41,331 bases of DNA from Kofleriaceae bacterium (lineage in GTDB: Bacteria; Myxococcota_A; Polyangia; Haliangiales; Haliangiaceae): contig JBKJLC010000167.1 of assembly GCA_046597055.1 (NCBI GenBank), forward strand, positions 1 to 41,331, in the 5' to 3' direction. A program made the position numbers and the translations under genes. A model generated the notes under the pieces. It saw nothing but the letters and a program-made list of their open reading frames with translations. It was not told the DNA's origin and ran no database searches. Below are positions 1 through 37,564 of the stretch, piece after piece. Numbering within the stretch: the first letter of the stretch is position 1; each line of letters opens with the position of its first letter.

Positions 1-141
1 ACGTTCACTCGCGCCGAAGGGCCGCAGCAGATTGCGGCGCTCGTCGAGCGCACGGGGTTGCGCGTCCTGTACGAGGATCGCAGCTGGCCGCCCGAGGCAG
101 ATGCGTTCTACATCGCACGCCTGCAGCGTGATGCATCGTGA
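1..141 (+). CDS. 3' end of an RsmB/NOP family rRNA cytosine-C5 methyltransferase (partial at window start)
   Basis: Frame 1 reads TFTRAEGPQQIAALVERTGLRVLYEDRSWPPEADAFYIARLQRDAS* (TGA 139-141). 'DAFYIARL' resembles the RsmB/Sun C-terminal D(G/A)F(F/Y)xAxL motif, and sun is often near rpe. Confidence 0.55.
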   Translation, partial: TFTRAEGPQQIAALVERTGLRVLYEDRSWPPEADAFYIARLQRDAS

Positions 142-185
142 GGACGCCTGACGACGACCGATGACGAATGAGCTATGGTGCGCCC

Positions 186-362
186 ATGGACGAGCTCATC
201 AACAAGATGGTCGACAAGGTTGGAATCGATAAGGCCACCGCCGAGAAGGTGATGGCCTTTCTCAAGGACAATGCAGGCGACGCCGTGAAGTACCTGCAGA
301 GCTCGGGCATCGCCGACAAGCTCCCGGGTGGCCTTGGCGACAAGCTCGGCAAGCTCTTTTAG
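186..362 (+). CDS. small hypothetical protein (58 aa, helical, DUF2267-like appearance)
   Basis: MDELINKMVDKVGIDKATAEKVMAFLKDNAG...GLGDKLGKLF has GC3-biased codons and a protein-like composition. ATG at 186 is preferred over 168. Confidence 0.7.
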   Translation: MDELINKMVDKVGIDKATAEKVMAFLKDNAGDAVKYLQSSGIADKLPGGLGDKLGKLF

Positions 363-472
363 TCAGAGCGCGCGCGTCAGCTTACCGTGGCAGTCCTCGG
401 CGATCGAGACGCAGTCCCAGTGGACCTCGACGCTCTGGTCGCAGTAGGAGCGGAGTCGCAGTCGGGGTGTCG

Positions 473-634
473 TTACACGTCGCCGTTTCGTTCGCGCAGC
501 CGCGCGATCGAGACGACCACGATGGTGAGCCCTCCGAGCACACCGAACGCGGAGCGAACGCCGTGCGCGAGCGCACGTGGAACCTCGAGGAGCGCTCTGT
601 GCCCCGCACCGCGGATATCGCTGGTGTCCTTCAT
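473..634 (-). CDS. possible small membrane protein (53 aa)
   Basis: Read by hand: MKDTSDIRGAGHRALLEVPRALAHGVRSAFGVLGGLTIVVVSIARLRERNGDV*. One hydrophobic segment, same strand as rpe and downstream of it, below the ORF-track length cutoff. Confidence 0.3.
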   Translation of the reverse strand: MKDTSDIRGAGHRALLEVPRALAHGVRSAFGVLGGLTIVVVSIARLRERNGDV

Positions 635-700
635 GCTGGACATACGAGCGAGGGTAGGGCGACGGATCGACGAGCGGATTGGTTTGCCTGAATCCCAGGC

Positions 701-1366
701 CTACGAGCGAGCCGACTCGGCGCGACGACGCAGCTCCGCGATCGTCTCGGCGTAGTTCTTCGTGCCGAACACGCCCGAGCCCGACACGATGACGTTTGCG
801 CCTGCACGGACGACCGCCTCGATGTTGTCGACCTTGATGCCGCCGTCGACCTCGATCTCGACCTGGTAACCGCGCTCGTCGATCATCCGCCGTAGACGCG
901 TGATCTTCTCGAGCGCGCTCGGAATGAACGCTTGGCCCCCGAAGCCGGGGTTCACCGACATGACGAGCACCATGTGCACGTCGCGGAGGACCCACTCGAT
1001 CGACTCGAGCGGAGTGTGCGGATTCAGCACGACGCACGGCTTCTTTCCGAGATCGCGAATCTGACCGATCGTGCGGTGCAGGTGCGGACATGCTTCCGCG
1101 TGTACACCGAGCAGATCTGCGCCGGCCTTGGCATACGCGGCAACCCAGCGGTCTGCGTCTTCGATCATGAGGTGCACGTCGAGTGGCAGCGTCGTCGTGC
1201 GTCTCACGGCCTCGATGACGATCGGTCCGATCGTCATGTTCGGTACGAAGTGACCATCCATGACATCGACGTGAACGTAGTCAGCCGACCCGATCGCGGC
1301 AATCTCCTCGGCGAGCCTGCCGAAGTCGGCGCTGAGAATCGACGGAGCGATACGGATCGGCAGCAC
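701..1366 (-). CDS. rpe: ribulose-phosphate 3-epimerase
   Basis: [39 protein letters not shown] and EVDGGI motifs. Confidence 0.97.
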
Positions 1367-1554
1367 GCAGCGACCTTATCATCCGCGACGAGATGAAACG
1401 GCGCGAACACGGCGAAGACGGCCGCGAGCGCGAGGAGCGCGCCGCTGATCTTCAGCGCGACCTTCCAGCGCGGCGGGCGCGGCAGCTCGTCGCGCAGCGG
1501 ACGCGGACGCGGGACCATCAGCGCGGGCGGCAGCGGAGCCGGTCGAAAGCTCAT
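1234..1554 (-). CDS. possible small Pro-rich single-pass membrane protein
   Basis: Pro/Arg-rich N-terminus followed by hydrophobic [18 protein letters not shown]. It fills the gap between the regulator and rpe, but its 3' part overlaps rpe, so it is doubtful. Confidence 0.3.
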
Positions 1555-1567
1555 GGGGAGGTTGGCG

Positions 1568-2188
1568 CTAATAGCCGCCGAACAGATCGGTCAGACGGAC
1601 GTCGAGCGCGGTCGCGACCTTGAACAGGCTCGAGACGCTCGCGCTCGACTCGGCGCGCTCGATCTGAGAGAGCAGCGAGACCGACAGATTCGTGCGCCGC
1701 GCCATCTGCTTCAGCGTGAGACCTCGCGCTTTGCGAAGATCGCGAATCTGGCGCCCGATCGCTGCGTGCAGCTCGTCCTCGCGCCGAAGCACGAGGCCCT
1801 TCTTCTTGGCGATGCGCGCGATGACGTCGCGAAACTCAGCGGGCGTGAACGGCTTGTGGATGTACGCCGAGACCTCGTGCTGGATCGACGCGGTCGCCGT
1901 ATCCAGCGATGGGTGGCCGGTCAGGATAATGACGGCGATGTCGTCATCGACGGCGCGGATATGCTGGAGCAGATCCATGCCCGAGACCTTCGGCATCATC
2001 AGGTCGAGCACGACGAGATGAAACACCTCGTCGCGGATGCGGTCGACGACGAGCGTTGGATCCGCGAGCGTCGTGACCTCGAATCCCTCCGCACCAAGGA
2101 AGTCCTGGAGGTACTCCAGAATGTCTGGATCGTCGTCGACGACGAGCACAGACAGCTTCGCTGACGTCCGCACGACCCCTGCCACCAT
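1568..2188 (-). CDS. response regulator: receiver domain plus C-terminal XRE/Cro-type HTH
   Basis: VLVVDDD, LVVLDLMMP (phospho-Asp), IILTG and YIHKPF receiver motifs, then IRDLRKARGLTLKQMARRTNLSVSLLSQIER (HTH_3-like). Confidence 0.92.
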   Translation of the reverse strand: MVAGVVRTSAKLSVLVVDDDPDILEYLQDFLGAEGFEVTTLADPTLVVDRIRDEVFHLVVLDLMMPKVSGMDLLQHIRAVDDDIAVIILTGHPSLDTATASIQHEVSAYIHKPFTPAEFRDVIARIAKKKGLVLRREDELHAAIGRQIRDLRKARGLTLKQMARRTNLSVSLLSQIERAESSASVSSLFKVATALDVRLTDLFGGY

Positions 2189-2206
2189 GAACCCCTCATT
2201 GGTAAC

Positions 2207-2252
2207 CTAAAAAGCAGAACCGCGGAGGACCTTGTTTGGGTACTCCGCGGTC
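2207..2252 (-). terminator. rho-independent terminator downstream of tRNA-Pro
   Basis: Minus strand GACCGCGGAG-TACCCAAACAAGGTC-CTCCGCGGTT followed by CTGCTTTTT. The CCGCGGAG/CTCCGCGG stem lies at 2220-2227 and 2243-2250. Confidence 0.65.
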
Positions 2253-2256
2253 ATCG

Positions 2257-2331
<75 letters not shown>

Positions 2332-2341
2332 TGAGGTGGTT

Positions 2342-2370
2342 TGGTTACCTCGCGCAGAAACCGCTGTCAA
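2342..2370 (-). promoter_or_regulatory. sigma70-type promoter for tRNA-Pro
   Basis: Exact TTGACA (2370-2365), a 17-bp spacer, then TAACCA (2347-2342), ending 12 bp upstream of the tRNA 5' end. Confidence 0.55.
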
Positions 2371-2380
2371 TGTCCTACGC

Positions 2381-3001
2381 TCACCGCCGACGCATCGCCG
2401 GGAGGGCGATGTGAAGTCCCATCTCGATGAAACTCCCCAGCTCCTGGACGGTACCGATGCGAACAAAAGGAGTTACGCCGACGAACGCCCAGACGCCGAC
2501 GGTGCCGCCAATCCGAGGGTGGGATAGCTCGGAGAGCTCGAGGATCGGTCCGGCCGACAGGCCAACCATGCGACCTATATGGGTGCCGGCGATCGCATCG
2601 ACCCAGAGTCGGCCCCCGCCGCGCTCGGTCCACCGGCTCGCACCGAAACTGCCGCCGATCGCGCCGAGGGCCGCGCCTTCACGGACGTAAACGACGGAGA
2701 GATCGCCCCCGATCGTCGAGTCCCACTCGCCAGCGACGCGGCTCGCCGCACCGACCGGCCCGAGCCAGACGTAGAGACCGTCGAGATCGGAGCTCGGCGG
2801 AAGCTCCGGCGGCGCCAGTTGCGCCCGTCTCCCCGGCGGATCGGGGTCGACTCTCGTCGGAACGAAGTTCTCCGAGTGCGCAAGATTCGTACGGAGGGTC
2901 AGGGCACACGCGAGAATGCATGCAGCAGTTCCCACTGGGGGCATCGATCCCCAGACGAACGGCCGGCGAACCGTCGCGAGGAGGAGATCTAGTGCCCGCA
3001 T
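2381..3001 (-). CDS. hypothetical exported protein, possibly a small beta-barrel
   Basis: Signal-like AACILACALTL and a Pro-rich linker, then repeated alternating hydrophobic/Gly strands (LYVWLGPVG, IGGDLSVVYV, IGGTVGVWAFVGVTPFVRIG, FIEMGLHIAL). The start may be internal (MPPVG). Confidence 0.6.
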   Translation of the reverse strand: MRALDLLLATVRRPFVWGSMPPVGTAACILACALTLRTNLAHSENFVPTRVDPDPPGRRAQLAPPELPPSSDLDGLYVWLGPVGAASRVAGEWDSTIGGDLSVVYVREGAALGAIGGSFGASRWTERGGGRLWVDAIAGTHIGRMVGLSAGPILELSELSHPRIGGTVGVWAFVGVTPFVRIGTVQELGSFIEMGLHIALPAMRRR

Positions 3002-3106
3002 ACTGATAGAATCAGGCCGTTAACGCTGTTGTAACGGGGTGGGCTCGTTAGTTGCTTCTGGACCTGCGCCGAGCAACTGAACTTCGTTGCGCAGCTTCCC
3101 CGCGAG

Positions 3107-5329
3107 ATGTCGAACTTGGCCATTCATCAAGCCGCCATGGCGGGTCCGGAGGTCATCGTACCACCCGGTCTCGAGAAGGCGTACTCGCTGCTCCGCGGGT
3201 TGCCGCTGTTCGAAGGCATTCCGGATCAAGATCTGATCGCTGCGATGAGTCAGGGCGGCATCGCGCATCGCCAGCTCGAGCGCGACATGTTCGTCCTCGA
3301 TCCGATCGGCCTCGCACACGGCCAGCCTGCGCCGGTGATCTACGTCGCGCGCGGCCAGGTCTCCGCTGGCGTCTTCGTCGAGCAGGAGCTCTCGGATCGT
3401 CGCGCGTACCAGCTGCAGCACGAGAACGCGACGAAGGAAGAGCGCGAGCAAGAGTCGCTGATCAAACCGCCGCCGCTCGCACGCATCGCACTGAAGAACG
3501 TCGCGCTGTTCATGGAAGGCGATCTCTTCAACTCGGGTGCGCTGTCCGCGGCTCGCGGTCAGCCGATGGCGTTCTACACGACGGCGCCGTCGATCTTGAT
3601 CTCGCTCGACCATCGCTGGATCGCCGAGCTTGCGGTCCGTCATCCAACGTTCGAAGCGCGCCTTCGTCGTGCGCTCAGTGTCTCGCGCGAGCGACTCGCC
3701 TGGGTCTCCGGCGTCAAGCAGGAGCTCCTCGACTTCTTCGTTCGCCAGGGCATCAGCGTCTCCGGCGAGATGGTGCGCGTGCGCCAGCTCGGCCTCTGCA
3801 TCGACTGCAAGCTCTGCGAGGAAGCATGCGAGGAGCGTTACGGCGCACAGCGCCTGACCCTCGGTGGCTATCAGCTCGGCATGCTCGACTTCATTTACAC
3901 GTGTCGCACGTGCACCGATCAGCGGTGCATCGACCCGTGTGCGTACGATTCGATCAAGTTCGACGAAGAGAAGCGCGAGGTCGTGATCAACGAGTCGACC
4001 TGCACGGGGTGCACCGCATGCGCGCAGGCGTGCCCGTACGGTGCGATCGACATGGTCGAGATCGAGGCCGACGCGCCGCGCTTCAAGAAGGACTTCCTCG
4101 ACCGCTTAGAGAAGCAGAACGCACTGAAGTTCGGGCCGGGAACGGGCCGCGTCGCACGCACGCGCCGTATCGCCAACAAGTGTGATCACTGCATGAGCTA
4201 CGGCGATCAGGCGTGCGTCTCGGCGTGTCCGACCGGCTCCCTGATCGAGATCAACGCATACGATCTGTTCCGCGAACGCAGCCCGGCGATGGCGCAGCTC
4301 GCGCGGCAGGGCTTCGACGTCGATCTCGCAAAGCGCGACCGCCGCGAGGTGCTACCGGTGATGCCGTTCACCGAGGGGCTCGACGTCCGCTCCGGTGGTC
4401 TCGCGAAGGTCAAGCGCGGCCGCTACGCCCCCCTGTTCATGTGGGTGCTCGGCCTGCTGACGTTCCTCATCTTCACGGGCGAGGCGCTGCTGCGTCTGTA
4501 CCCACCGGCGATGAGCTATCAGTTCAGCCAGTTCAAGGCGAACCCCGAGTACGCCGACCTCCCCGAGGTGGCGATCCTCGAGCTCGTGACGTATCGCGGC
4601 GGTCCGGGATTGTCGGTGTGGGCGGCGCTGATCGGCGTTGGTCTCATGATCGTCGCGGCCGTCTATCCGATCTTCAGACGCATCAAGCTATTCCGGTGGA
4701 TGGCCTCGAACACGATGTGGTTCGACTTCCACCTGATGGCGGGCACGGTCGGGCCGATGTTCATCGCGCTGCACTCGGCGTTCAAGGGCCCGCAGTTCAC
4801 GTTCGCCTCGGTCGGCTTCTGGAGCATGGTGATCGTCGCGCTGTCCGGCTTCATCGGCCGCTACCTCTACACGCAGGTCCCCGAGCTCTCGAGCGGCCAC
4901 GAGCTCGAGGAGCTCGACCACGAGCGCACGTTCCAGCACCACCGCGGCCAGCACCCGGTCGCGATGGCCGAGATCGATCGCGAGCTGGCCGACCACCAGC
5001 GCAAGGCCGATCGGGTCGCTCACGGCTCGGGCCTGATCGCGACCCTGGCCTGGCTGCTGGTCGAGGATCTGCGCCGGCCGGTGCGCCGGCTGCGCCGTCG
5101 CTCGCGGCTGCGACGCCTCGGGGTCACCGGTCGCCCGCGTCGCGATCTGATCCGCCGCGCCGGTCGCATGATCAAGATCCAGCGCTCCGGTGTCATCGCC
5201 CCCAAGGCGGCCCTGCTGCTCCACTCGTGGAAGAAGGTCCACGTCCCGTTCACGATCCTGCTCGCGATCGTGGGCACGCTGCACATCTCGCTGTCGTGGG
5301 CCAACGTCAACTGGGATCGACTCTGGTAG
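3107..5329 (+). CDS. inner-membrane redox protein: degenerate cNMP-binding domain, 4x[4Fe-4S] ferredoxin domain (NrfC/DmsB-like) and di-heme-b transmembrane domain
   Basis: CAP-like N-terminus (LRGLPLFEGIPDQDL...IYVARGQV...GDLF). Four Cys groups: CIDCKLCEEAC, CRTCTDQRCIDPC, CTGCTACAQACP, CDHC-x7-CVSACP. About five TM helices, two of them with His-x13-His (codons at 4730/4772 and 5240/5282). Confidence 0.85.
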   Translation: MSNLAIHQAAMAGPEVIVPPGLEKAYSLLRGLPLFEGIPDQDLIAAMSQGGIAHRQLERDMFVLDPIGLAHGQPAPVIYVARGQVSAGVFVEQELSDRRAYQLQHENATKEEREQESLIKPPPLARIALKNVALFMEGDLFNSGALSAARGQPMAFYTTAPSILISLDHRWIAELAVRHPTFEARLRRALSVSRERLAWVSGVKQELLDFFVRQGISVSGEMVRVRQLGLCIDCKLCEEACEERYGAQRLTLGGYQLGMLDFIYTCRTCTDQRCIDPCAYDSIKFDEEKREVVINESTCTGCTACAQACPYGAIDMVEIEADAPRFKKDFLDRLEKQNALKFGPGTGRVARTRRIANKCDHCMSYGDQACVSACPTGSLIEINAYDLFRERSPAMAQLARQGFDVDLAKRDRREVLPVMPFTEGLDVRSGGLAKVKRGRYAPLFMWVLGLLTFLIFTGEALLRLYPPAMSYQFSQFKANPEYADLPEVAILELVTYRGGPGLSVWAALIGVGLMIVAAVYPIFRRIKLFRWMASNTMWFDFHLMAGTVGPMFIALHSAFKGPQFTFASVGFWSMVIVALSGFIGRYLYTQVPELSSGHELEELDHERTFQHHRGQHPVAMAEIDRELADHQRKADRVAHGSGLIATLAWLLVEDLRRPVRRLRRRSRLRRLGVTGRPRRDLIRRAGRMIKIQRSGVIAPKAALLLHSWKKVHVPFTILLAIVGTLHISLSWANVNWDRLW

Positions 5330-5340
5330 TGTCGACGGCG

Positions 5341-7701
5341 ATGTCCTCCCGCGTGTCGCGTGCCTTCGTGCTCGCGGTCGTGGTCGCGATCGGCCTGGGA
5401 CTGCGCGTCGGCGCGGCCCAGGCTCAGGGCGACTTCTTCACCACCTCTCCCGGGCCGCTGGCGTCGAGTCACGCCAGCCTCGACAGCGCCGATCGCTGCA
5501 ACGACTGTCACGTCGGCACGCGCGATCTGACCAACGACAAGTGCCTCGGTTGCCACGATCACAACGACCTGCGGGCGCGGATCATCCAGGGCAAGGGCTT
5601 TCACGCCTCGAGCCTGGTCAGCGGCAAGAAGTGCGAGTCGTGTCACCTCGACCACAAGGGCCGCAGCTACGACCTGATGGGCTGGCGGTCGGTCGCCGGC
5701 GGTGAGAACGGCTTCAACCACGACCTCACCGGCTGGAAGCTGCAGGGCAAGCACGCCGCGATCGCGTGCGCCGACTGCCACAAGACCCGCAACAAGCAGG
5801 GGCTGCGCACCTACCTCGGCCTCGATCGGCTGTGCGGCTCGTGCCACAAGAACGATCAGCCGCACGGGTTCGAGCGCCGGGAGATGCTCGCCTGCGAGCG
5901 CTGCCACGGCGAGAGCGTGTGGAACCCGCCGAAGTCGAACCAGGACTTCGATCACAACGACAAGAAGGACGCGACCATGGCGCTGGTCGGCTCGCACGAG
6001 GACGTGTCGTGCGCGAAGTGCCACCCCAAGGCGCTGTTCAACCTGAAGGGCAACAAGCCCGACTTCTGCGGCAACTGCCACGATAGCCCGCACGACAACC
6101 ACATGTTCGGCAAGAAGGAGTGCGAGTGGTGCCACTCGCCCTCGTACGGCGCGCTCGACAAGTTCAAGTTCAACCACGACGCGCGGACCACGTTCGACCT
6201 CGGCCGCGCCCACGGCGGCATGGGCTGCTACGACTGCCACACCAAGGCGCTCGGCGAACGCACGCCCGACAAGACCTGCGAGGCGTCGGGCTGCCATGCC
6301 CGCGACAACAAGCACGGCGATCGCTTTGCCGCGTTCGGCGGCGACCCGCCGGCGTGCCTCACCTGCCATCTGTCGTCGGTCGACGACTGGAAGAAGAGCG
6401 CGGTCGCGTTCAACCACGACAAGCGGACCAAGTTCGCGCTGACCGGCCGCCACGACGAGGTGACCTGCCGGAGCTGTCACCGCGGCAAGACCCCCGCCGA
6501 GTGGGAGCGCTTCGACCCGAAGACGGTCGGCTGCCGTGGCTGCCATCAGCACAAGAACGTCCACCCGAAGGAGAAGTTCACCGACAAGGAGTGCCTCGGC
6601 TGCCACAAGGCCGCGGGCAACGTGCAGCTCACCGCCAAGAGCGTCGACGTCTATCACGGCCCGAAGTCACGCTTCCCGCTGGTGAAGGCGCACAAGTTCG
6701 TGAAGTGCGCGCAGTGCCATCCCAAGGACAACTTCAAGGACACGCCGCTCGAGTGCGGGGTGACCTGCCACGAGGACTCGCTCCACAAGGGCACGCTCGG
6801 CGACACCTGCACGACCTGCCACAGCCCCGGCATCTGGGATGCGGTCCGGTTCGATCACACCGAGGACACCAAGTGGCCGCTCGAGGGCCTGCACGCCAAG
6901 ATCGCTGACTGCGCCGACTGTCACCCCAAGCGCGCGTACGACGGCACCCCGACCACCTGCTCGGCCGCGGGCTGCCACGCCAAGGACGACGTCCACAAGG
7001 GCCGGCTCGGCTCGACCTGCGACAAGTGCCACAAGACCACCGGCGACAACGTCTTCAATCACAACACGATGTCGAAGTTCCAGCTCGACGGGAAGCACCT
7101 CGACACCCGCTGCAGCGACTGCCATCCGTCGGTGACCTTCAAGCCGCGGCCGTCAGACTGCTTCGGCTGTCACCCCGAGCCGGCGGTGCACCTCGGTCAG
7201 TACGGCACCGCGTGCGAGAGCTGCCACACCACCACGTCGTTCACCGAAATCCTGCCGCTGCACGACGTCGGTGATTTCTCGCTGACCGGCGCGCACGACA
7301 ACCTCGCGTGCGCGCGTTGCCACAAGGATTCGCGGCCGATGGCCGGCACCGGCAACCTGTGCATCAACTGCCACCGTCAGGACGACGTCCACCAGAACGC
7401 GCTGACGCCGCGCTGCGGGGAATGCCACACCCAGTGGGGATTCACCCCGGCCCGGTTCGATCACGCGTCGGTCGGCTGCAACCTGACCGGCCTGCACCGG
7501 ACGCTGGCGTGCGCCGACTGCCACACCGCCGGCAACTACGGCGGGCTGGTCGCCGAGTGCGTCGGCTGTCACCGCGACGAATCGCAGCGCAAGGATGCGC
7601 GGCACCAAGCCTACAACTCATGTACCGGCGGCGGGGCCTGTCACAACCCCAACGCGTGGCTGCCGACCGTCGGCTCGTTCCGGGAGTCGATCTGCCGATG
7701 A
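5341..7701 (+). CDS. periplasmic multiheme cytochrome c (786 aa, 26 CxxCH plus 4 extended CxnCH motifs)
   Basis: Sec signal peptide MSSRVSRAFVLAVVVAIGLGLRVGAAQA, and heme motifs counted by hand. The real start is ATG 5341, not 4213. Confidence 0.95.
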   Translation: MSSRVSRAFVLAVVVAIGLGLRVGAAQAQGDFFTTSPGPLASSHASLDSADRCNDCHVGTRDLTNDKCLGCHDHNDLRARIIQGKGFHASSLVSGKKCESCHLDHKGRSYDLMGWRSVAGGENGFNHDLTGWKLQGKHAAIACADCHKTRNKQGLRTYLGLDRLCGSCHKNDQPHGFERREMLACERCHGESVWNPPKSNQDFDHNDKKDATMALVGSHEDVSCAKCHPKALFNLKGNKPDFCGNCHDSPHDNHMFGKKECEWCHSPSYGALDKFKFNHDARTTFDLGRAHGGMGCYDCHTKALGERTPDKTCEASGCHARDNKHGDRFAAFGGDPPACLTCHLSSVDDWKKSAVAFNHDKRTKFALTGRHDEVTCRSCHRGKTPAEWERFDPKTVGCRGCHQHKNVHPKEKFTDKECLGCHKAAGNVQLTAKSVDVYHGPKSRFPLVKAHKFVKCAQCHPKDNFKDTPLECGVTCHEDSLHKGTLGDTCTTCHSPGIWDAVRFDHTEDTKWPLEGLHAKIADCADCHPKRAYDGTPTTCSAAGCHAKDDVHKGRLGSTCDKCHKTTGDNVFNHNTMSKFQLDGKHLDTRCSDCHPSVTFKPRPSDCFGCHPEPAVHLGQYGTACESCHTTTSFTEILPLHDVGDFSLTGAHDNLACARCHKDSRPMAGTGNLCINCHRQDDVHQNALTPRCGECHTQWGFTPARFDHASVGCNLTGLHRTLACADCHTAGNYGGLVAECVGCHRDESQRKDARHQAYNSCTGGGACHNPNAWLPTVGSFRESICR

Positions 7702-9317
7702 GGGCCGCGATCGCGATCGTCATGGTCAGCGCGGCTGCGACCCCGGCCGTGGCCCAGCAGGTCGAGGAAGATCGCTTCTTCGTCGACAAGGACGACGAGG
7801 ACGCCGACAAGACGCTGTGGCAGGGCAGCCTGACCGCCAGCACGTTCCTGTTCCGCGAGAGCGGCGGGCTGGGCACGCCCCTGATGCCGGGTGGCGCGCA
7901 GGTCGACAACGCCAGTCCGTTCCAGCGGCTGTTCACCGAGCTGCGCGCCCAGCTCGATGGGCGCCACCTGCGCGGCGGGCGCTGGGATCTGCGCGCCGAT
8001 GCCCGGGCCCGCATCGTCAACGATCCGGCCGACGCCAATCCGCTGACGCAGGACAACTCGGTCCAGTCGGGCGCGTACGGCGGCGCCGAGTACGACGTGC
8101 GCGACCTGTACCTGGTGCGCACCGGTCGCCGGACCGATCTGTTCGTCGGTCGTCAGACCGTGGGCGATCTGGCCGCGACCAAGATCGACGGCGTGCGGCT
8201 CGACTACGCGGCGAGCACCCGCTGGACCTACCTGGGCTTTGCCGGCCTGTATCCGCTGCGCGGCTCGCGGTCGGTCACGACCGACTACCCGACGGCGAGC
8301 GATCGCGGCGCCGGCAAGACCCGGCCGCTGCCGGTGGCCGGCGGGTTCGGCGGCGCCTACCGGACGATGCGCTCCTACGGCGCGATCGGCGGCGTCGCGA
8401 TCGTCACGCCGCAGCGCGACCCCGCCACCGGCACCTACGAGAAGCCGCGGGTGTTCGTCACCGCCAACGGCTACTGGCGGCGGACCCCTGCGTTCGATCT
8501 CTTTCACTACTTCGTCGTCGACCTCTACGGTCCCGGTGGGTTCGCCCTCACCAACGCGACCCTGGGCGCGCAGTGGAAGGTGAAGCCGCGGTTCCGGCTC
8601 AACCTCAGCGGGACCCGGGTCGACCCCGAGGTGCTCACCATCCAGATCCGCGATCGCCTCGAGGACGGCGAGCCGCTGGCGAACACCCCGCTCAACAACG
8701 TCGAGGTCCAGCGCATCGCGTCGGACTCGGTGCGAGCGTCTGCGTCGGCCGGGTTCGGCAGTTCCAGCCGGTTCGAGCTGACGGTCGGGATGAACGGTCG
8801 TCGGCGCGCCGAGGTCCAGCTCACCGACAACACCGCCGACACCGCCGACCGCGTGCTCCCGGCCGCGCAAGCGGTCGAGCTCATGGTGCAGGGCGTCGAT
8901 CGCCGCTTCTACGGCGGGCTCCGGCTCGATCTGATGTACCTGCGCACGGTCGGCATCGGCGCCTCGAGCTACGCGCGATCGACCGGCCAGCTGGTGCGCC
9001 TGGGCGCCCGCAAGGAGCTTGGCGACGGCCGGTCCGAGGTGCAGGCCGATGTCGCGCTGGTGCAGAGCGCCGACGACGACGCTGGCACGGTGTGCGTGCC
9101 CGGTGGCCTGACGAGCTGCTTCGGCAGCGCCAACACCCGCGGGCTCCAGGGCAACCTGACCGGGTACCACCGGCTCAAGGCCGACTGGTACGTGACCGGT
9201 GTGCTCGGCATCGCCAGCCAGAAGATCACGGTGACCGAGCTGATGGGCACCGGCGGCGTCCCGCAGTCGACCACGGTCAGCACCACGGCGTTCCTGCGCG
9301 TCGGCTACCGGTTCTGA
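7698..9317 (+). CDS. outer-membrane beta-barrel (putative cytochrome-associated porin, 539 aa)
   Basis: ATGA overlap with the cytochrome stop, signal peptide MRAAIAIVMVSAAATPAVA, many amphipathic strands and a C-terminal BAM-type motif FLRVGYRF. Confidence 0.85.
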   Translation: MRAAIAIVMVSAAATPAVAQQVEEDRFFVDKDDEDADKTLWQGSLTASTFLFRESGGLGTPLMPGGAQVDNASPFQRLFTELRAQLDGRHLRGGRWDLRADARARIVNDPADANPLTQDNSVQSGAYGGAEYDVRDLYLVRTGRRTDLFVGRQTVGDLAATKIDGVRLDYAASTRWTYLGFAGLYPLRGSRSVTTDYPTASDRGAGKTRPLPVAGGFGGAYRTMRSYGAIGGVAIVTPQRDPATGTYEKPRVFVTANGYWRRTPAFDLFHYFVVDLYGPGGFALTNATLGAQWKVKPRFRLNLSGTRVDPEVLTIQIRDRLEDGEPLANTPLNNVEVQRIASDSVRASASAGFGSSSRFELTVGMNGRRRAEVQLTDNTADTADRVLPAAQAVELMVQGVDRRFYGGLRLDLMYLRTVGIGASSYARSTGQLVRLGARKELGDGRSEVQADVALVQSADDDAGTVCVPGGLTSCFGSANTRGLQGNLTGYHRLKADWYVTGVLGIASQKITVTELMGTGGVPQSTTVSTTAFLRVGYRF

Positions 9318-9410
9318 GCGGCGGTCGCGGTCCCGATGTGTGTGTGCGGGCTACCCGTGCTGCGGCCCTGCACGTCGGCGTGCGCCAGCGCTGATCGAGC
9401 GCGGCCCGGT

Positions 9411-9443
9411 CCGGCAGCGACCCCGTGAAATTTTCGCTGCCGG
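9411..9443. promoter_or_regulatory. perfect 10-bp inverted repeat between the porin and adhesin genes
   Basis: CCGGCAGCGA-ccccgtgaaattt-TCGCTGCCGG with no U-tract, so it could be a hairpin or an operator. Confidence 0.4.
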
Positions 9444-9480
9444 CCGCGAACCGGTGCGGCGTTGCGTGCAGACTCCGAGC

Positions 9481-12400
9481 ATGGGAAGTCAGGGCGCGAC
9501 GCTGGCGGCGGTGTGCGGGGTCCTCATCGGGTTGGCCGCGTGTGGTGACAACCTGCCGCCCCACGCGGACCGGGACGACGACGAGGTCGCCGACGCGGAC
9601 GACAACTGTCCCGAGACCGCCAACCCGACGCAAGCGGACGGCGACGGCGATGGAGTCGGCGACGCCTGCGATCCGTGTCCCGACGATGCCGCCAACCCGG
9701 CCGGATGCGGCAACCGGGCCGACCAGACGATCACCTTCACCTCGCCCGCGCCGACGACCGCGGCGGCGGGGGGGCCGCCGTACCTGGTGACCGCGACCGC
9801 AACCTCGGGGCTGGCGGTCGTGCTCTCGATCGACCAGACCGCGGCCGGGGTGTGCGCGATCGCCGGCGCGACCGTGTCGTTCACCGGCGTCGGCACCTGC
9901 GTCGTCAACGCCAACCAGGCCGGCGACGCCAGCTTCGATCCCGCGCCCCAGGTGCAGCAGACCTTCGCCGTGGGCAAGGGCGCGCAGACGATCAGCTTCA
10001 ACTCGACGGCCCCCACCACGGCAGCGCTCGGCGGCGCGACCTACACCGTGACCGCCACCGCCACCTCGGGCCTGCCGGTCGTGTTGACGATCGACGCCAG
10101 CGCGGCCGGGGTGTGCTCGATCACCGGCCCGACCGTGGCGTTCATCGGCGTCGGCACGTGCGTGATCAACGCCAACCAGCCTGGCGACGCCACCTACGAT
10201 GCGGCGCCGCAGGTGCAGCAGTCGTTCGCGGTGGGCCGGGGCGCCCAGACGATCAGCTTCACCTCGACCCCACCGACCGCCGCGACCGTGGGCGGCGCGA
10301 CCTACACGGTGGCCGCGGCCGCGACCTCGGGGCTCGCGGTCACCTTCACGATCGACGCGGCGGCGGCCGGCGTGTGCACGATCGCCGGCGCGACGGTCGC
10401 GTTCATCGGCGCGGGCACGTGCGTGATCGACGCGAACCAGGCGGGCAACGCCAGCTACACCGCGGCGCCGCAGGTGCGGCAGACCTTCACGGTGGTCCGG
10501 GCGACGCAGACCATCAGCTTCACCTCGACGGCGCCGACGGATGCCGCGATCGGGGGGCCGACCTACGCCGTGACCGCGACCGCGACCTCGGGCTTGCCGG
10601 TCGGGTTCACGATCAACCCGCTGGCGACCGGCGTGTGCACCCTCGCGGGCGCGACGGTGTCGTTCATCGGCACCGGCACGTGCGTGATCGACGCCAACCA
10701 GCCAGGCGATGCCCGCTTCGCCCCCGCGCCCCAGGTCCAGCAGACCATCAGCGTGGGACGGGCCGCGCAGACGATCCGCTTCACCTCCACCGCACCGACG
10801 ACGGCGGCGGTCGCGGGCGCCACGTATGCCGTGGCCGCGGTCGCGACCTCGGGGCTCCCGGTCGCGCTGACGATCGACGCCGCGGCCGCCGGGGTCTGCA
10901 CGATCGCGGGCGGCACGGTGACGTTCATCGGCGCCGGCACCTGCGTGATCAACGCCAACCAGGCCGGCGATGGCGGCTTCAGCCCCGCGCCGCAGGTGCA
11001 GCAGTCGTTCGCGGTCGCGCCGGGCACGCAGTCGATCCGCTTCACCTCGACCGCCCCGGTGGACGCCACGGTGAATGGCGCGACCTACACGGTGACCGCG
11101 ACCGCGACCTCCGGGCTCGCGGTCGCCGTGACGATCGACGCGGCAGCGGCCGGGGTGTGCACCCTCGCGGGCACGACCGTGTCGTTCATCGGCGCCGGCA
11201 CCTGCGTGATCAATGCCAACCAGGCCGGTGACGCCAACCACAGTCCGGCGCCCCAGGTGCAGCAGTCCTTCCCCGTGGCCCGAGCCGCGCAGACCATCAC
11301 CTTCACCTCGGTCGCGCCGGCCGCGGCGACCGTCGCGGGCGCCACCTACACCGTGACGGCGACCGCGACCTCGGGGCTGCCGGTCGCCTTCACGATCGAC
11401 GCGGCGGCGAGCGGGGTGTGCTCGATCGCCGGTGCGACGGTCTCGTTCATCGGCGCCGGGACCTGCCTGGTGAACGCCAACCAGGCCGGCGACGCCGACT
11501 ACAACCCGGCGCCGCAGGTGCAGCAGTCGTTCGCGGTGGGCCGGGGCGCGCAGACGATCACCTTCACGTCGACCGCGCCGGCCGCGGCGGCGGTCGGCGC
11601 GGCGACTTACACGGTGACCGCGACCTCGACCTCGGGCCTGCCGGTGACGTTCACGATCAACCCGCTGGCGATCGGGGTGTGCTCGATCGCGGGCGCGACG
11701 GTGTCGTTCATCGGCGCCGGCACGTGCGTCATCGACGCCAACCAGGCCGGCAACGCCAGCTTCGACCCGGCGCCGCAGGTGCAGCAGACGTTCGTGGTCG
11801 GCCGCGGGGCGCAGTCGATCAGCTTCACGTCGGCGGCGCCGGCGGCGGCCGCGGTCGGCGGCGCGACCTACCCGGTGACCGCGGCCGCGACCTCGGGCCT
11901 GCCGGTGAGCTTCACGATCAACCCGGTGGCGGCCGGGGTCTGCTCGATCGCGGGCGCGACGGTCTCGTTCATCGGCGCTGGCACGTGCGTCATCGACGCC
12001 AACCAGGCCGGCAACGCCAGCTACAACCCGGCGCCGCAGGTGCAGCAGACGTTCGTGGTCGGTCGCGGCGCGCAGACCGTCAGCTTCACGTCGACCGCGC
12101 CGGCCACGGCGACCGTCGGCGGCGCGACCTACACGGTGAGCGCGACCGCGACCTCGGGGCTCGCGGTCGCCTTTTCGATCGACGCGGCGGCGGCCGGGGT
12201 GTGCTCGATCGCGGGCGCGACCGTCTCGTTCCTCGGCGCTGGCACTTGCCTGGTCAACGCCGACCAGGCCGGCAACGCCGACTTCGACGCGGCGCCGCAG
12301 GTGCAGCAGGCATTCGCGGTGGGCCCGGGCGCGCAGACGATCAGCTTCACGTCGACCGCGCCGGCGGCGGCGACGGTCGGCGGCGCGACCTACACGGTGA

Positions 12401-15210
12401 CCGCGACCGCGACGTCGGGCCTCCCGGTGACGCTCACGGTCAGCGCGGCGGCGGCCGGGGTGTGCACGATCGCCGGCGCGACGGTGTCGTTCACCGGCGT
12501 CGGCACGTGCGTCCTCAATGCCAACCAGGCCGGCAACGCCAGCTACAACTCCGCGCCGCAGGTCCAGCAGTCGTTCGCCGTGACCGGCGCCGCGCAGACG
12601 ATCAGCTTCACCTCGACCGCGCCGGCCGCGGCGACCGTCGGCGGCGCGACCTACACGGTGACCGCGACCGCGACCTCGGGGCTGGCGGTCGCCCTCACCA
12701 TCGATCCGGTGGCGAGCGGCGTGTGCTCGATCGCGGGCGCGACGGTGACGTTCGTGACCGCCGGCACGTGCGTGATCGACGCCAACCAGGCCGGCAACGC
12801 GACCTACGACCCGGCGCCGCAAGTGCAACAGGCCTTCGCGGTGCCCCGGGGCGCCCAGACCATCACCTTCACCTCGACCGCACCGACCAGCGCGGCGTAC
12901 CAGGGCGCCACCTACGCCGTCACCGCGACCGCCACGTCCGGGCTCCCGGTGGCGCTGACCATCGATGGCGCGTCGGCCGGGGTGTGCTCGATCGCGGGCG
13001 GGACGGTGTCCTTCATCGGCACCGGCACGTGCGTGGTCAACGCCAACCAGGCCGGCACGGCTGGCTATGAACCGGCGGCCCAGGTGCAGCAGGTCATCCT
13101 GGTCGGACCCCGGCTGGTGGCGGATAGCTACAGCGTGGTGGGCAACACCCAGCTCGTGGCCGCCAACCACTCGACGCCGACCACCCCGTTCACGATCGAC
13201 GCGACCACGATCCTGGCCAACGACGCCTCGAACGTCGCCATCACCCTGAGTGCGGTCACCGGCGCCGCGACCACCGGTGGCGGATCGATCACCATCGACG
13301 GCAGCGGGCGCTTCCTCTACACGCCGCCGGTGGGCGTCGCGTCGGGGACCGATACCTACGTGTACACGGGCACGTCCAGTGGCGTGGCGCGCACCGCGAC
13401 CCTCACGTTCAACATCGCGAACATCGTCTGGTACGTCAACAGCGCGTCGACGGCAGCTCGCGATGGCCGCTCGAGCTCGCCCTTCCTCAACCTGGGCCCG
13501 GGCGCCGGCAACCTCGGCACCGCGGCCGGCGCCGGTGCGTACATCTACGTGCACCGCGGCGCGGCCACGACCCCCGGTGCGCACACGCTGCTGACCAATC
13601 AGCGGCTCGTCGGCGCAGGCGCCGCGCTCGCGGTCGGTGCCCTGAGCATCGCCGGCAACACCGCGAACACGCCGACCTTGGCAGGTACCCTGTCTGCCAC
13701 CGGCGTCTCCGGGGTGCTCGTGACCGGCATCCGGATGTCGACCGGCGGGTCGACCGCGGTGAACCTGACCAACGTCGACGGCTCCTTCACCTTCACCCGG
13801 ATCGACGTCAACGGCGCGCCGAACGGGATCGTCTGGAACAACGCGACCGCCGCCCTGGCCAGCAGCAGCCTCCGGGTCACCGGCGACGACACGAACACGG
13901 CGCTCGGCGGCAACGGCAGCGGCGGCGTGCTCACCAACACGAGCGGCGCCGACGGGGCGATCGCCGGCAACGGCGTCTACCTGAACAACGTGGGGAACGT
14001 GGAGCTGCGCCGGATGGTCATCAACGGCACGATGCAGAACCACGCGATCCGCGGCTACCGGGTGAACGGCTTCGTCCTGGAGTACTCGACCGTAGTCGGC
14101 GTCCACGGCACCGCCGGGTCGCTGGCAGCGCCGGAGACGGCGGGTGAGGGCGCCATCTACTTCGGCAACACCGCGACCAACGGCCTGTCGACCGCGGCCA
14201 CCTTCACCAGCAACGTCATCAGCTCCGGTCGCGGGCGCAACCTGTCCATCATCAACACCGTCGCGGGCACCACCAGCCTGACGATCCGGAGCAACAGCTT
14301 CGGGCTCAACCAGAACTTCGCCGACGCCGGGCACAGCGTGGCGGTGGAGGCGCGTGGCAGCGGGACGATCCTCAACACCACCATCGGCGGCACCGCGGCC
14401 CAGGCCAACACCTTCACCGGTGCGCCGGGCGACCTGGTCAACGTCACCGGTCAGGCCGGGACCGTCGTGGACGTACAGCTCAGGACCAACTCGATGTCAA
14501 ACGGCCACGCCAACAACACGGTTGGCGGCGGCGGGGTGACGCTGGCCACCCAGGGCACGATGACCTTCACCGTCGACGGCAACAGCCTGCGCGGGGCCGA
14601 CGGCAGCGCCCTCACGCTGCAGAAGGCCAGCGCGGGCGCCCTGCTGTCGGGCCGCGTGACCAACAACGTCATCGGCGTCAGCGGGAGCGTCGGGTCGGGC
14701 TCGAAGTCGGGCAATGGCATCTTCCTGTCCGCCGCCGGCGCCGGCACCGTCGGCCTGACCGTCCTCAACAACCAGATTCGCAACTGGGCCAACGCGGGCG
14801 TGAGCCTCGACAACACCGGTGGCAGCTACGCGGCGAACTTCACGATCCAGGGCAACGTCATCGCCGAGCCCGGCGCCGGGGCCTTCTCGTCGCTCGCCGT
14901 CACCAACGGCGCGCCCGGCTCCACCGATACGGTCAACGTGTGCGCGGTCATCGGCGGGGGCAGCGTCGGCCTGCGCAACTCCTTCACCGGGGCCGCGGCC
15001 GTGGCCGACGTGTACCTGGGCGCGAGCGGTGCCGCCAGCGGCCACACGTTCAACCTGCCGGGCTACGCGGGCGGCGGCCTGGCGGGGGTGCAGGCCTTCG
15101 TGAGCAGCAACAACAGCATCGCCGGCGGCGCGGCCTACATCGCTTATGCGGACGCTCCGGCGACCGCGGCCGCCTTCACGGGCACCGGGGGCGTGTGCCC
15201 GACCCCGTGA
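9481..15210 (+). CDS. giant surface lipoprotein/adhesin (1909 aa): thrombospondin type-3-like Ca-binding motifs, 13 Ig-like repeats, a Big_9/tandem-95-like domain and a C-terminal beta-helix
   Basis: Lipobox GLAA|C. DRDDDEVADADDNCP...DGDGDGVGDACD. 13 repeats of 87 aa. DSYSVVGN...ILAND...FLYTPPVG..GTDTYVY. Asn/Gly/Thr-rich beta-solenoid-like C-terminus starting at IVWYVNS...DGRSSSPF. Confidence 0.9.
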   Translation: MGSQGATLAAVCGVLIGLAACGDNLPPHADRDDDEVADADDNCPETANPTQADGDGDGVGDACDPCPDDAANPAGCGNRADQTITFTSPAPTTAAAGGPPYLVTATATSGLAVVLSIDQTAAGVCAIAGATVSFTGVGTCVVNANQAGDASFDPAPQVQQTFAVGKGAQTISFNSTAPTTAALGGATYTVTATATSGLPVVLTIDASAAGVCSITGPTVAFIGVGTCVINANQPGDATYDAAPQVQQSFAVGRGAQTISFTSTPPTAATVGGATYTVAAAATSGLAVTFTIDAAAAGVCTIAGATVAFIGAGTCVIDANQAGNASYTAAPQVRQTFTVVRATQTISFTSTAPTDAAIGGPTYAVTATATSGLPVGFTINPLATGVCTLAGATVSFIGTGTCVIDANQPGDARFAPAPQVQQTISVGRAAQTIRFTSTAPTTAAVAGATYAVAAVATSGLPVALTIDAAAAGVCTIAGGTVTFIGAGTCVINANQAGDGGFSPAPQVQQSFAVAPGTQSIRFTSTAPVDATVNGATYTVTATATSGLAVAVTIDAAAAGVCTLAGTTVSFIGAGTCVINANQAGDANHSPAPQVQQSFPVARAAQTITFTSVAPAAATVAGATYTVTATATSGLPVAFTIDAAASGVCSIAGATVSFIGAGTCLVNANQAGDADYNPAPQVQQSFAVGRGAQTITFTSTAPAAAAVGAATYTVTATSTSGLPVTFTINPLAIGVCSIAGATVSFIGAGTCVIDANQAGNASFDPAPQVQQTFVVGRGAQSISFTSAAPAAAAVGGATYPVTAAATSGLPVSFTINPVAAGVCSIAGATVSFIGAGTCVIDANQAGNASYNPAPQVQQTFVVGRGAQTVSFTSTAPATATVGGATYTVSATATSGLAVAFSIDAAAAGVCSIAGATVSFLGAGTCLVNADQAGNADFDAAPQVQQAFAVGPGAQTISFTSTAPAAATVGGATYTVTATATSGLPVTLTVSAAAAGVCTIAGATVSFTGVGTCVLNANQAGNASYNSAPQVQQSFAVTGAAQTISFTSTAPAAATVGGATYTVTATATSGLAVALTIDPVASGVCSIAGATVTFVTAGTCVIDANQAGNATYDPAPQVQQAFAVPRGAQTITFTSTAPTSAAYQGATYAVTATATSGLPVALTIDGASAGVCSIAGGTVSFIGTGTCVVNANQAGTAGYEPAAQVQQVILVGPRLVADSYSVVGNTQLVAANHSTPTTPFTIDATTILANDASNVAITLSAVTGAATTGGGSITIDGSGRFLYTPPVGVASGTDTYVYTGTSSGVARTATLTFNIANIVWYVNSASTAARDGRSSSPFLNLGPGAGNLGTAAGAGAYIYVHRGAATTPGAHTLLTNQRLVGAGAALAVGALSIAGNTANTPTLAGTLSATGVSGVLVTGIRMSTGGSTAVNLTNVDGSFTFTRIDVNGAPNGIVWNNATAALASSSLRVTGDDTNTALGGNGSGGVLTNTSGADGAIAGNGVYLNNVGNVELRRMVINGTMQNHAIRGYRVNGFVLEYSTVVGVHGTAGSLAAPETAGEGAIYFGNTATNGLSTAATFTSNVISSGRGRNLSIINTVAGTTSLTIRSNSFGLNQNFADAGHSVAVEARGSGTILNTTIGGTAAQANTFTGAPGDLVNVTGQAGTVVDVQLRTNSMSNGHANNTVGGGGVTLATQGTMTFTVDGNSLRGADGSALTLQKASAGALLSGRVTNNVIGVSGSVGSGSKSGNGIFLSAAGAGTVGLTVLNNQIRNWANAGVSLDNTGGSYAANFTIQGNVIAEPGAGAFSSLAVTNGAPGSTDTVNVCAVIGGGSVGLRNSFTGAAAVADVYLGASGAASGHTFNLPGYAGGGLAGVQAFVSSNNSIAGGAAYIAYADAPATAAAFTGTGGVCPTP
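9724..13116 (+). repeat. 13 tandem 261-bp (87-aa) coding repeats
   Basis: The Q(T/S)(I/V)xFxS unit starts at 9724, 9985, 10246 ... 12856, an exact 261-bp period. Each unit has ATSGL, GVC, GTC and NQAG/NQPG motifs. Confidence 0.95.
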
Positions 15211-24229: not shown

Positions 24230-24282
24230 GCCCGGCCTATATCACGGGTCGGCGGCGCACCGACCGTGGCCGCCGTGCCGCG

Positions 24283-29125: not shown

Positions 29126-29129
<4 letters not shown>
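27024..29129 (-). CDS. BatA-like N-terminal domain plus VWA domain membrane protein
   Basis: GTGA overlap with the DUF58 gene. [18 protein letters not shown] (BatA N-terminus), [12 protein letters not shown] and C-terminal [11 protein letters not shown]. Confidence 0.88.
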
Positions 29130-30067
<938 letters not shown>

Positions 30068-30073
30068 GGGGGG

Positions 30074-31084
<1,011 letters not shown>

Positions 31085-31119
31085 GTTCTCCCCGGGAAGC
31101 GAGTGCGAGTGCGACGACC

Positions 31120-33357: not shown

Positions 33358-33682
33358 GGCTAGCTACATCCCAACCGGGCGGCCGCCCGTGCAATTCCGG
33401 CGTGAACGTGCACCGATGACGCCCAGCATAGCACCTTCATTCCACGCACCAGACCGAGCACAGGTCTAGCGCCCCCAGGCACGGCGAATGCCGCAGTTGC
33501 GCCGTTGCCGCGCCGGTGCTGCGCCACGCGCGCGCGCGCGCGGCGTCGGCGGTGCGCGTCGGTGGCGTGCTGACGCGCGCACGTCGGCGCTGGCGCGAGT
33601 GGCCCATGGTCATCAGGACCACGGACACCGCGACCCGGCGCCGGTTTCGCCACGGGATGCCCGGGGCCCACCTACATGTGCG

Positions 33683-36250
<2,568 letters not shown>

Positions 36251-36391
36251 CGGCGTGCGACCGTAGACCAGTGGGCGCCCTGGGTAAAGCCACCCAGTCC
36301 CCGGGGTGCAGCCGGCTCCGAAGGCCCCAGAGATCGGGTCCGGGACGCGCATCACACCGGCCTCGGGGGCGGACGATGATAACGTGCCTCG

Positions 36392-37561: not shown

Positions 37562-37564
37562 CCC

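Follow-up and report, generated by a model that had tools for sequence, protein, structure and literature searches.

A conserved three-gene operon of Kofleriaceae encodes a putative porin–cytochrome conduit with 30 hemes and a fused iron–sulfur domain

The stretch of DNA analysed here (the window) comprises 41,331 nucleotides, positions 1 to 41,331 of contig JBKJLC010000167.1 from the Kofleriaceae bacterium assembly GCA_046597055.1, and contains an operon of three co-directional genes, g1, g2 and g3, which code for an iron–sulfur/di-heme membrane fusion protein, a multiheme cytochrome and a predicted outer-membrane β-barrel (Table 1). The genes g1 and g2 are separated by an 11-bp gap, and g2 and g3 overlap by ATGA at 7698–7701. 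This layout had been given in a preliminary description of the DNA, together with four [4Fe-4S] motifs and two His-x13-His pairs in g1, 30 heme motifs in g2 and a GYRF end in g3; coordinates and reading frames were re-derived, and all of these counts held. The named records nearest to the operon are mostly Kofleriaceae, Haliangiales or Myxococcales bins. The evidence at the level of sequence consists of cofactor motifs, conservation, export signals and gene order; the folds of g1 and g3 and the insertion of g2 into g3 are predictions.

Table 1. Positions, in the window, of the operon genes, their domains and the upstream features (aa, amino acids; cNMP, cyclic nucleotide monophosphate; HTH, helix-turn-helix)
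Feature	Position	Strand	Remarks
g1	3107-5329	+	740 aa; three-domain fusion, PtdE+PtdF-like; chimera of two orthologs in this contig
cNMP-binding-like (Crp-type) domain of g1	3155-3724	+	aa ~17-206; phosphate-binding cassette degenerate
HycB/HydN/DmsB-type domain of g1, four [4Fe-4S] clusters	3764-4282	+	aa ~220-392; 16 conserved Cys
Membrane domain of g1	4427-5302	+	aa ~441-732; five predicted helices, di-heme-b type
Misassembly junction in g1	4697-4731	+	exact 35-nt word common to contig C238:21462-21496
g2	5341-7701	+	786 aa; multiheme cytochrome with Sec-type signal peptide
Part of g2 docked in g3 (predicted)	7264-7698	+	g2 aa 642-786, last six heme motifs; overlaps conserved aa 570-749
g3	7698-9317	+	539 aa; signal peptide; predicted outer-membrane barrel; C-terminus GYRF
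Response regulator (receiver + Cro-type HTH)	1568-2188	-	divergent from g1; upstream position conserved in relatives
tRNA-Pro(CGG)	2256-2330	-	between regulator and g1

The structure of g1 was modelled with a predicted local distance difference test (pLDDT) of 88.7 and a predicted template modelling score (pTM) of 0.85. The protein has 16 Cys residues, arranged in four motifs of the [4Fe-4S] type, and its membrane helices bear two His-x13-His pairs, H542/H556 and H712/H726; conservation of the 16 Cys and the four His extends to 74–75 of the 75 aligned sequences. Since the Cys and His residues of g1 and the heme motifs of g2 are near-invariant in the homologues, they are not there by chance. 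In the iron–sulfur domain PF13247 scored 31.7 bits (cut-off 26.2); HycB4 (7qv7) was matched by sequence with an E value of 1.5e-21 and 9mqx_E by fold with Z 12.9, the region resembling HycB-type four-cluster subunits being residues ~220–400. The membrane domain carries the signature WX3HX13H twice (W538/H542/H556 and W708/H712/H726) and SGXXG at 580–584, the His-x13-His motifs lying on the third and fifth helices, and the best fold match of residues 439–740 of the whole-protein model was STEAP4 (6hcy; Z 8.5, root-mean-square deviation (rmsd) 5.0, 170 residues aligned). The iron–sulfur and di-heme membrane parts that had been proposed for this protein were thereby recovered as a HycB/HydN-type domain and a STEAP-like domain. 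Basic residues are concentrated before helix 1, in loop 522–537 and in loop 587–707, which would place the iron–sulfur domain and loop 587–707 in the cytoplasm, with H542 and H712 on the cytoplasmic side and H556 and H726 on the periplasmic side. All aligned g1 orthologs are fused proteins of ~650–750 aa, with no stand-alone membrane protein of ~300 aa among them, and a homologue search for stand-alone membrane proteins gave mostly fragments of close orthologs.

The N-terminal domain of g1 resembles cNMP-binding domains in its predicted fold (Z 9–10.9 overall; for 3dn7 Z 10.9, rmsd 3.5, 142 residues aligned), and PF00027 exceeded its cut-off only in two distant orthologs. The Gly-Glu...Arg cassette is the phosphate-binding signature of cAMP/cGMP sensor domains. 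It was present in 0 of the 75 aligned g1 sequences, and gating of the conduit by a nucleotide-sensing domain, as suggested in the preliminary description, therefore appears doubtful from the residues at this site, although the fold is cNMP-like. The domain is likely structural, or it binds a ligand other than a cyclic nucleotide.

The cytochrome g2 contains 26 CxxCH motifs, one CX3CH, two CX4CH and one CX5CH, 30 in total, with ~25 aa per heme and repeats of roughly three hemes. Thirty motifs were counted in 68 of 74 g2 sequences and 29 in the other 6; this constancy of the heme number over two classes suggests a length constraint. Moreover, 33 His residues outside the motifs are conserved at 88–100% in the 74 sequences, which is enough for bis-His ligation of every heme. 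The signal sequence ends in an AxA-type site in 70/74 sequences, a lipobox-like match occurring in 1/74. Polymers of the c7 type extend by ~1 nm per heme, so that the 30-heme chain of g2 could be long enough to span the periplasm. Its best-conserved part is aa 570–749. The protein failed the DmsE/MtrA decaheme family model TIGR03508 (14.9 bits against a cut-off of 192.2), and its matches to PDB sequences were marginal. At some loci (L066:14348-16837, L110:14413-17055, L108 and L096) the barrel gene is followed by another copy of g2, complete or partial.

The model of g3 (pLDDT 87.9, pTM 0.83) has 22 long β-strands, counted from the listed elements, and no plug domain; an aromatic C-terminal residue is found in 115 of 116 homologs. 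Both features bear out the earlier assignment of the third protein as a barrel. The family gave no NCBIfam match at E 0.1, no Pfam family and no PDB sequence match, and a Pfam scan of 17 barrel candidates left 16 without a match and one with a weak DUF2490. At E 0.001, 296 representative homologs were obtained. In the Atlas, g3 led only to Myxococcota clusters without names, BBP2_2 being possibly a chance neighbour, and no cultured strain was named in the cluster look-ups of g3 homologues.

Co-folding of cytochrome and barrel, which had been put forward as a check in the preliminary description, gave a score of 0.68 for g3 with g2, compared with 0.00 for the best control; of 157 solved complexes 116 attained the mark used, as did 2 of 215 mismatched pairs. 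The runs agreed in at least 73% of contacts, and the partner pLDDT was at least 69. The contacts made by g2 642–786 fall on alternating residues over most of the length of g3, which is the pattern to be expected of a chain lying in the barrel lumen, and the last six hemes of g2 are predicted to sit inside the barrel. In MtrAB the C-terminal hemes of the cytochrome are inserted in the barrel. The g2–g3 pair would resemble MtrAB, MtoAB and PioAB in the insertion of the C-terminal hemes of the cytochrome into a plug-free barrel; it differs from them in that g3 has no MtrB/PioB match, g2 is not a DmsE/MtrA decaheme and no CymA-type gene belongs to the operon.

Of 40 relatives, 29 have a full-length g1, among them 22 of the 24 that belong to the family. 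The order g1-g2-g3 was present in 17 of 20 fetched regions (two others were cut by contig ends and one was a paralog) and in 63/63 loci having at least 4.3 kb downstream, drawn from 78 loci of which the other 15 were too short. In the 20 fetched loci, rpe and the response regulator usually lie upstream of g1, and a tRNA belongs to the same fixed site. A fused g1-type gene occurred in 23 of 301 genomes of a phylum-wide draw, as sorted here. In family f44, which belongs to another class, g1 is ~25% identical, and 11 of 13 loci contain g1, a 30-motif cytochrome and a barrel scoring against the g3 profile; the co-occurrence across Myxococcota that had been named as a check was thus observed. In genomes with g1 apart, cytochrome and barrel were adjacent elsewhere in 5/5 tested, and the adjacency of g2 and g3 was kept at every informative locus examined. 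At the f44 loci L119, L120 and L132 a Cys-rich repeat protein of 550–650 aa with a lipoprotein-like start is encoded directly upstream of g1; it had no Pfam match at E 1e-6 at these three loci.

In the window, two orthologs have most likely been misjoined into one g1 gene. The window from 1 to ~4700, and with it g1 codons 1 to ~540, stems from another Kofleriaceae organism than the remainder: the identity of g1 switches at about codon 540, being highest before this point to the other Kofleriaceae lineage (mostly 75–100% per 40-residue window) and beyond it to the genome's own genus, and the third-position guanine-plus-cytosine content is lower over the first 4.7 kb of the contig. A second g1 (codons 1–576) lies at the end of contig C238; g2 and g3 are single-copy. 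In four public sequencing runs of one study, which may include the source sample, contigs of runs X1–X3 matched the window from 4706 or 4711 on and had no long upstream piece, a single piece of X1 reaching window position 9649 with zero differences. The same three runs matched C238 up to the shared 35-nt word with 0–1 differences and at similar depth, while run X4 gave fragments of the 5' part of the window which diverged from it after ~4735. The C238 copy was considered as a true paralog and rejected: most likely it and the 3' part of g1 in the window are native parts of a single gene, with C238 providing the 5' part; natural recombination is unlikely, the two native pieces being comparable in depth in three runs and both ending at the shared word. 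The response regulator sits in the foreign part of the contig, and a second copy lies beside the g1 of C238. The foreign segment (window 1–4696) holds rpe, the regulator, tRNA-Pro, a 206-aa frame and the 5' part of g1, all of the other Kofleriaceae origin. The chimera leaves the operon finding intact because both parent lineages carry the intact three-gene layout; for practical work, an intact g1 ortholog is needed since the g1 of the window is chimeric.

The preliminary description had listed an NAD(P)H/FAD domain, an MtrC-like surface cytochrome and heme-maturation genes as missing. This stands for the surface cytochrome as far as the window is concerned, in which no gene for an extracellular multiheme cytochrome was found, but ccm genes, an MtrC-domain decaheme and an iron–sulfur/flavin adenine dinucleotide (FAD) oxidoreductase were all detected elsewhere in the genome. 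Contig C159 carries ccmE, ccmF, ccmB/C and an ABC subunit. A 2x[4Fe-4S]/FAD pyridine-nucleotide oxidoreductase is present in two copies (contigs C25 and C36), possibly one for each organism in the bin; the C36 copy shows a hydrophobic helix at its N-terminus, together with a GGGDSA...YRG motif, which we take to be of the NADPH type. This oxidoreductase was found in 29/29 close relatives with full-length g1 and in 2/11 without g1. A Fer4+Pyr_redox gene lies directly upstream of the g1 paralog in the paralogous clusters L038, L128 and L129; on its opposite strand, L129 (984-10938, G002:C11) additionally encodes a 30-heme cytochrome and a homolog of g3. Of 91 other membrane-domain homologs, 70 are within 10 kb of a Fer4/Pyr_redox-type oxidoreductase gene.

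Several further observations concern these partner genes. L129, L128 and L038 represent a divergent paralogous cluster, in which a barrel and a 30-heme cytochrome lie on one strand and a small lipoprotein-like cytochrome, Fer4/Pyr_redox and the g1 paralog on the opposite one. The bin has a contamination of 7.55%, and the C25 and C36 oxidoreductase copies, which lie in similar neighbourhoods, may belong to the same contamination. Both proteins (loci L140 and L141) end in 400 or more Pro-rich, low-complexity residues with repeated Asp/Glu-x-Thr-Arg words, possibly phosphorylation sites. The MtrC-domain decaheme is encoded at C101:56575-69307 (L137), where nosZ stands beside it, a NapC/NirT-type protein and cytochromes with 11, 13 and 27 motifs; this is a second, more conventional electron-transfer cluster next to N2O reductase. 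Cytochromes with 13–15 motifs also occur at C140:20947-25525 (L138) and C179:34191-37045 (L139) beside long frames lacking Pfam matches, maybe barrels. No surface cytochrome was conserved with the operon in the 78 loci, the extra multiheme frames being g2 copies, g2 fragments and one unrelated protein.

The porin–cytochrome clusters PCC3 and PCC4, which are among the closest published systems, were defined in PMC5566968; the membrane protein of both has five helices, SGXXG and two WX3HX13H motifs. In subgroup II of PCC4 a PF13247 gene lies upstream of the membrane protein, and a one-gene fusion was annotated in Oceanospirillum beijerinckii (PMC5566968). The cluster ptdABCDEFG (10.1101/2023.11.21.568154) codes for a porin, an FAD/NAD(P) oxidoreductase, a cNMP/4Fe-4S protein, a ferric-reductase-like protein and 5-, 4- and 10-heme cytochromes, with the function given as unknown; judged by the shared 4/5/10-heme layout, PCC4 and ptd would be the same kind of cluster. 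Periplasmic cytochromes of PCC3 with 21, 24 and 27 hemes were proposed to span the periplasm (PMC9900912), and PCC3 is called functionally unverified in 10.1101/2025.02.27.639646. Many novel putative cytochrome clusters for extracellular electron transfer were reported from Myxococcota (10.1101/2022.03.26.485925), and the present operon may be among those in the supplements of that report. The combination had not been recognised in the preliminary description, yet the PCC3/PCC4 and ptdABCDEFG papers already describe its layout. The same description had seen no characterised system in it, and indeed no experimental characterisation was found in the literature. No paper on the operon in Kofleriaceae, Haliangiales or Haliangium was found in a search that left most subscription literature outside.

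With PCC4/ptd the operon shares a porin, a periplasmic multiheme cytochrome, a five-helix membrane protein with the same motifs and a cNMP/4Fe-4S protein just upstream of it, as well as the lack of an extracellular cytochrome. It has a single 30-heme cytochrome in place of the 4-, 5- and 10-heme proteins, its cNMP/iron–sulfur and membrane parts are stably fused and the cNMP cassette is degenerate, and the counterpart of the FAD/NAD(P) oxidoreductase (PtdC) is unlinked in the main operon, being linked only in L038, L128 and L129; the hosts are Myxococcota instead of the Proteobacteria, Planctomycetes and Nitrospirales described for PCC4/ptd. With PCC3 it has in common a long, repetitive periplasmic cytochrome of low aa-to-heme ratio (>20 hemes there, 30 here), the motifs of the membrane protein and a porin, that of Leptothrix cholodnii having 22 strands as in the g3 model. 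In contrast to PCC3, the operon is without an extracellular multiheme protein, and its membrane protein bears a 430-aa cytoplasmic cNMP-like/iron–sulfur extension instead of standing alone at ~300 aa. The g1 protein reads as a fusion of PtdE and PtdF whose membrane domain has the PCC3/PCC4 inner-membrane signature. Since the defining features of neither PCC3 nor PCC4/Ptd are fully present, the operon is a new, minimal form of the PCC3/PCC4 kind, set apart from the named members by their descriptions, and not a new category.

Homology to the membrane domain of g1 and to g2 extends to Myxococcota-group clusters in which the membrane protein stands alone and is accompanied by one or two multihemes. 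The ferric-reductase-domain superfamily (STEAP, NOX, MsrQ) resembles g1 in the His pairs on helices 3 and 5, with STEAP4 as the top fold match; it differs in having a fused FAD/NADPH domain instead of a fused four-cluster iron–sulfur feed, and the output of g1 is likely a c-type heme chain. On plasmid pEMTOL02 of Emticicia oligotrophica (NC_018749.1:78197-89995, L144), ccsA, a homologous membrane protein, an NAD(P)-binding protein and two multihemes are found together; the multiheme compared is 32% identical to g2 and shares its N-terminal motif, and weak likeness to g3 is seen in a protein of 538 aa (E 0.012, probability 3.5%). Unlike the operon, the plasmid has a stand-alone membrane protein, a linked oxidoreductase and ccsA, and two cytochromes. 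Plasmid homologue searches found only Emticicia; E. oligotrophica is a cultured member of the Bacteroidota and a tractable host of a relative of the operon. Other fusions of the same modules include two true cNMP domains with an iron–sulfur and a membrane domain (L127:1330-7411, L134:7207-9504), followed 3' in L127 by an FHA/multiheme/Pyr_redox fusion, and a membrane domain joined to a 5-motif cytochrome (L131:5922-10276); these look closer to the Ptd layout.

The three proteins probably form one physical conduit. Domains of the STEAP/NOX type are known to pass electrons outward. From this direction, the fused iron–sulfur domain and the association with an oxidoreductase, the conduit is read as an outward, iron–sulfur-fed electron wire from the cytoplasm to the cell surface, to which we assign a probability of about 0.5. 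A cytoplasmic reductant would load the four [4Fe-4S] clusters of g1; in Kofleriaceae this would most probably be NADPH, with the membrane-anchored 2x[4Fe-4S]/FAD oxidoreductase from elsewhere in the genome as the intermediary. Electrons would then cross the inner membrane from the inner heme (H542/H712) to the outer one (H556/H726), as in STEAP/NOX-type domains, both hemes being likely of the b type. The N-terminal end of g2 may dock on g1, its chain bridging the periplasm, and the terminal heme, which has no dedicated surface cytochrome beside it, could reduce soluble acceptors such as chelated Fe(III) or humic quinones at the barrel mouth, or could pass electrons to an MtrC-like protein encoded elsewhere.

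Several points weigh against this reading. With Z 8.5 the match to STEAP4 is middling by the standard of helical domains, and only 4 of 25 membrane domains matched PF01794, weakly (best E 0.005). No gene for the oxidoreductase occurs within 10 kb of any of the 23 fused g1-type genes of the phylum-wide draw, and in 10 of the 23 genomes no oxidoreductase match reached E 1e-45, six candidates being scored per genome; a donor of this type is therefore not universal. The complex was folded heme-free and with g2 aa 505–786 only, and its passing may reflect likeness to solved porin–cytochrome pairs. The compared genomes are kin and their counts not independent, so that the synteny reflects inheritance rather than independent selection. 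Finally, a quinone-active protein and inward flow were proposed for the same membrane family (PMC5566968). According to the corresponding alternative, which is possible but on the whole improbable, the flow through this conduit is inward or terminates in the quinone pool. Fe(II), reduced humics or other cells would supply the electrons, these would enter via g3 and g2, and g1 would reduce quinone like a cytochrome b, the iron–sulfur domain being a side branch. This is the model offered for PCC3/PCC4 in that paper, iron-oxidising cells of Sideroxydans showed upregulation of the PCC3 inner-membrane gene (10.1101/2025.02.27.639646), and the operon, like MtoAB and PioAB, has no surface cytochrome. 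For a plain quinone reductase, however, a fused domain with 16 near-invariant Cys would be superfluous; an NAD(P)/FAD enzyme occurs in related clusters, and reduction of such iron–sulfur clusters by Fe(II) would be uphill.

The wire might also be non-respiratory. It could be an assimilatory or chemical surface reductase that liberates iron or copper bound in chelates or prey, or that generates superoxide where contacts are made, or it could be a heme capacitor, storing electrons while oxygen levels swing. Its near-universal presence in the family (22/24 relatives), at a fixed site by rpe, the regulator and the tRNA, has a housekeeping look unlike a patchy respiratory add-on, STEAP4 is a metal reductase, and respiration could be served by the other multiheme clusters of the genome, one of them with the MtrC-domain decaheme and the NapC-type protein. 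On the other hand no metal-uptake gene is conserved downstream of g3, and 32 hemes and 16 irons per copy would be costly for iron uptake; a non-respiratory role is unlikely. That the proteins are merely co-regulated and form no continuous wire, the g3 barrel having other cargo and g2 feeding periplasmic enzymes, would fit the unlinked g1 of 5 genomes and the related porin-less clusters of PMC5566968 (Table S6); it is very improbable in view of the g2–g3 adjacency at every informative locus, the complex model and the heme number fixed at 30 across two classes.

Behind the operon (window 9340–15210) a 1956-aa protein is encoded, which consists mostly of ~87-aa Thr/Ala/Val-rich repeats and is likely a surface protein; it has no heme motifs and no Pfam match above cut-off, and no counterpart stands at the same place in the 20 fetched relative loci. 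No gene 3' of g3 is conserved across the 78 relative loci. Further on (24242–39780), a 1308-aa vWA-domain protein, several long frames without Pfam match, an aminotransferase and a DUF4147/MOFRL (glycerate-kinase-like) gene are found, which are unrelated to the operon.

PCC3 and PCC4/Ptd clusters are widespread, and their function is called unverified or unknown in the papers cited. The operon makes two questions testable, namely the partner of the membrane protein family, quinones or cytoplasmic iron–sulfur/NADPH, and the direction of the electrons; with three polypeptides and the iron–sulfur input fused to the membrane hemes, it is a convenient system to reconstitute. A quinone-independent path from cytoplasm to surface, if true, would differ from the CymA/ImcH/CbcL-type route. 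It is tempting to speculate further that in Kofleriaceae and their kin a near-core hard wire leads from cytoplasmic NADPH and iron–sulfur clusters to the surface, skipping the quinone pool, as a NOX/STEAP-like reductase extended over both membranes by a 30-heme ruler of fixed length, although in this full form the proposal is doubtful. If this holds, these myxobacteria could use such a wire to discharge reducing power onto minerals, humics or other cells, or to attack them chemically. Kofleriaceae are common myxobacteria of soil and freshwater, and the near-fixed presence of the operon in this family suggests a surface redox ability that has been overlooked.

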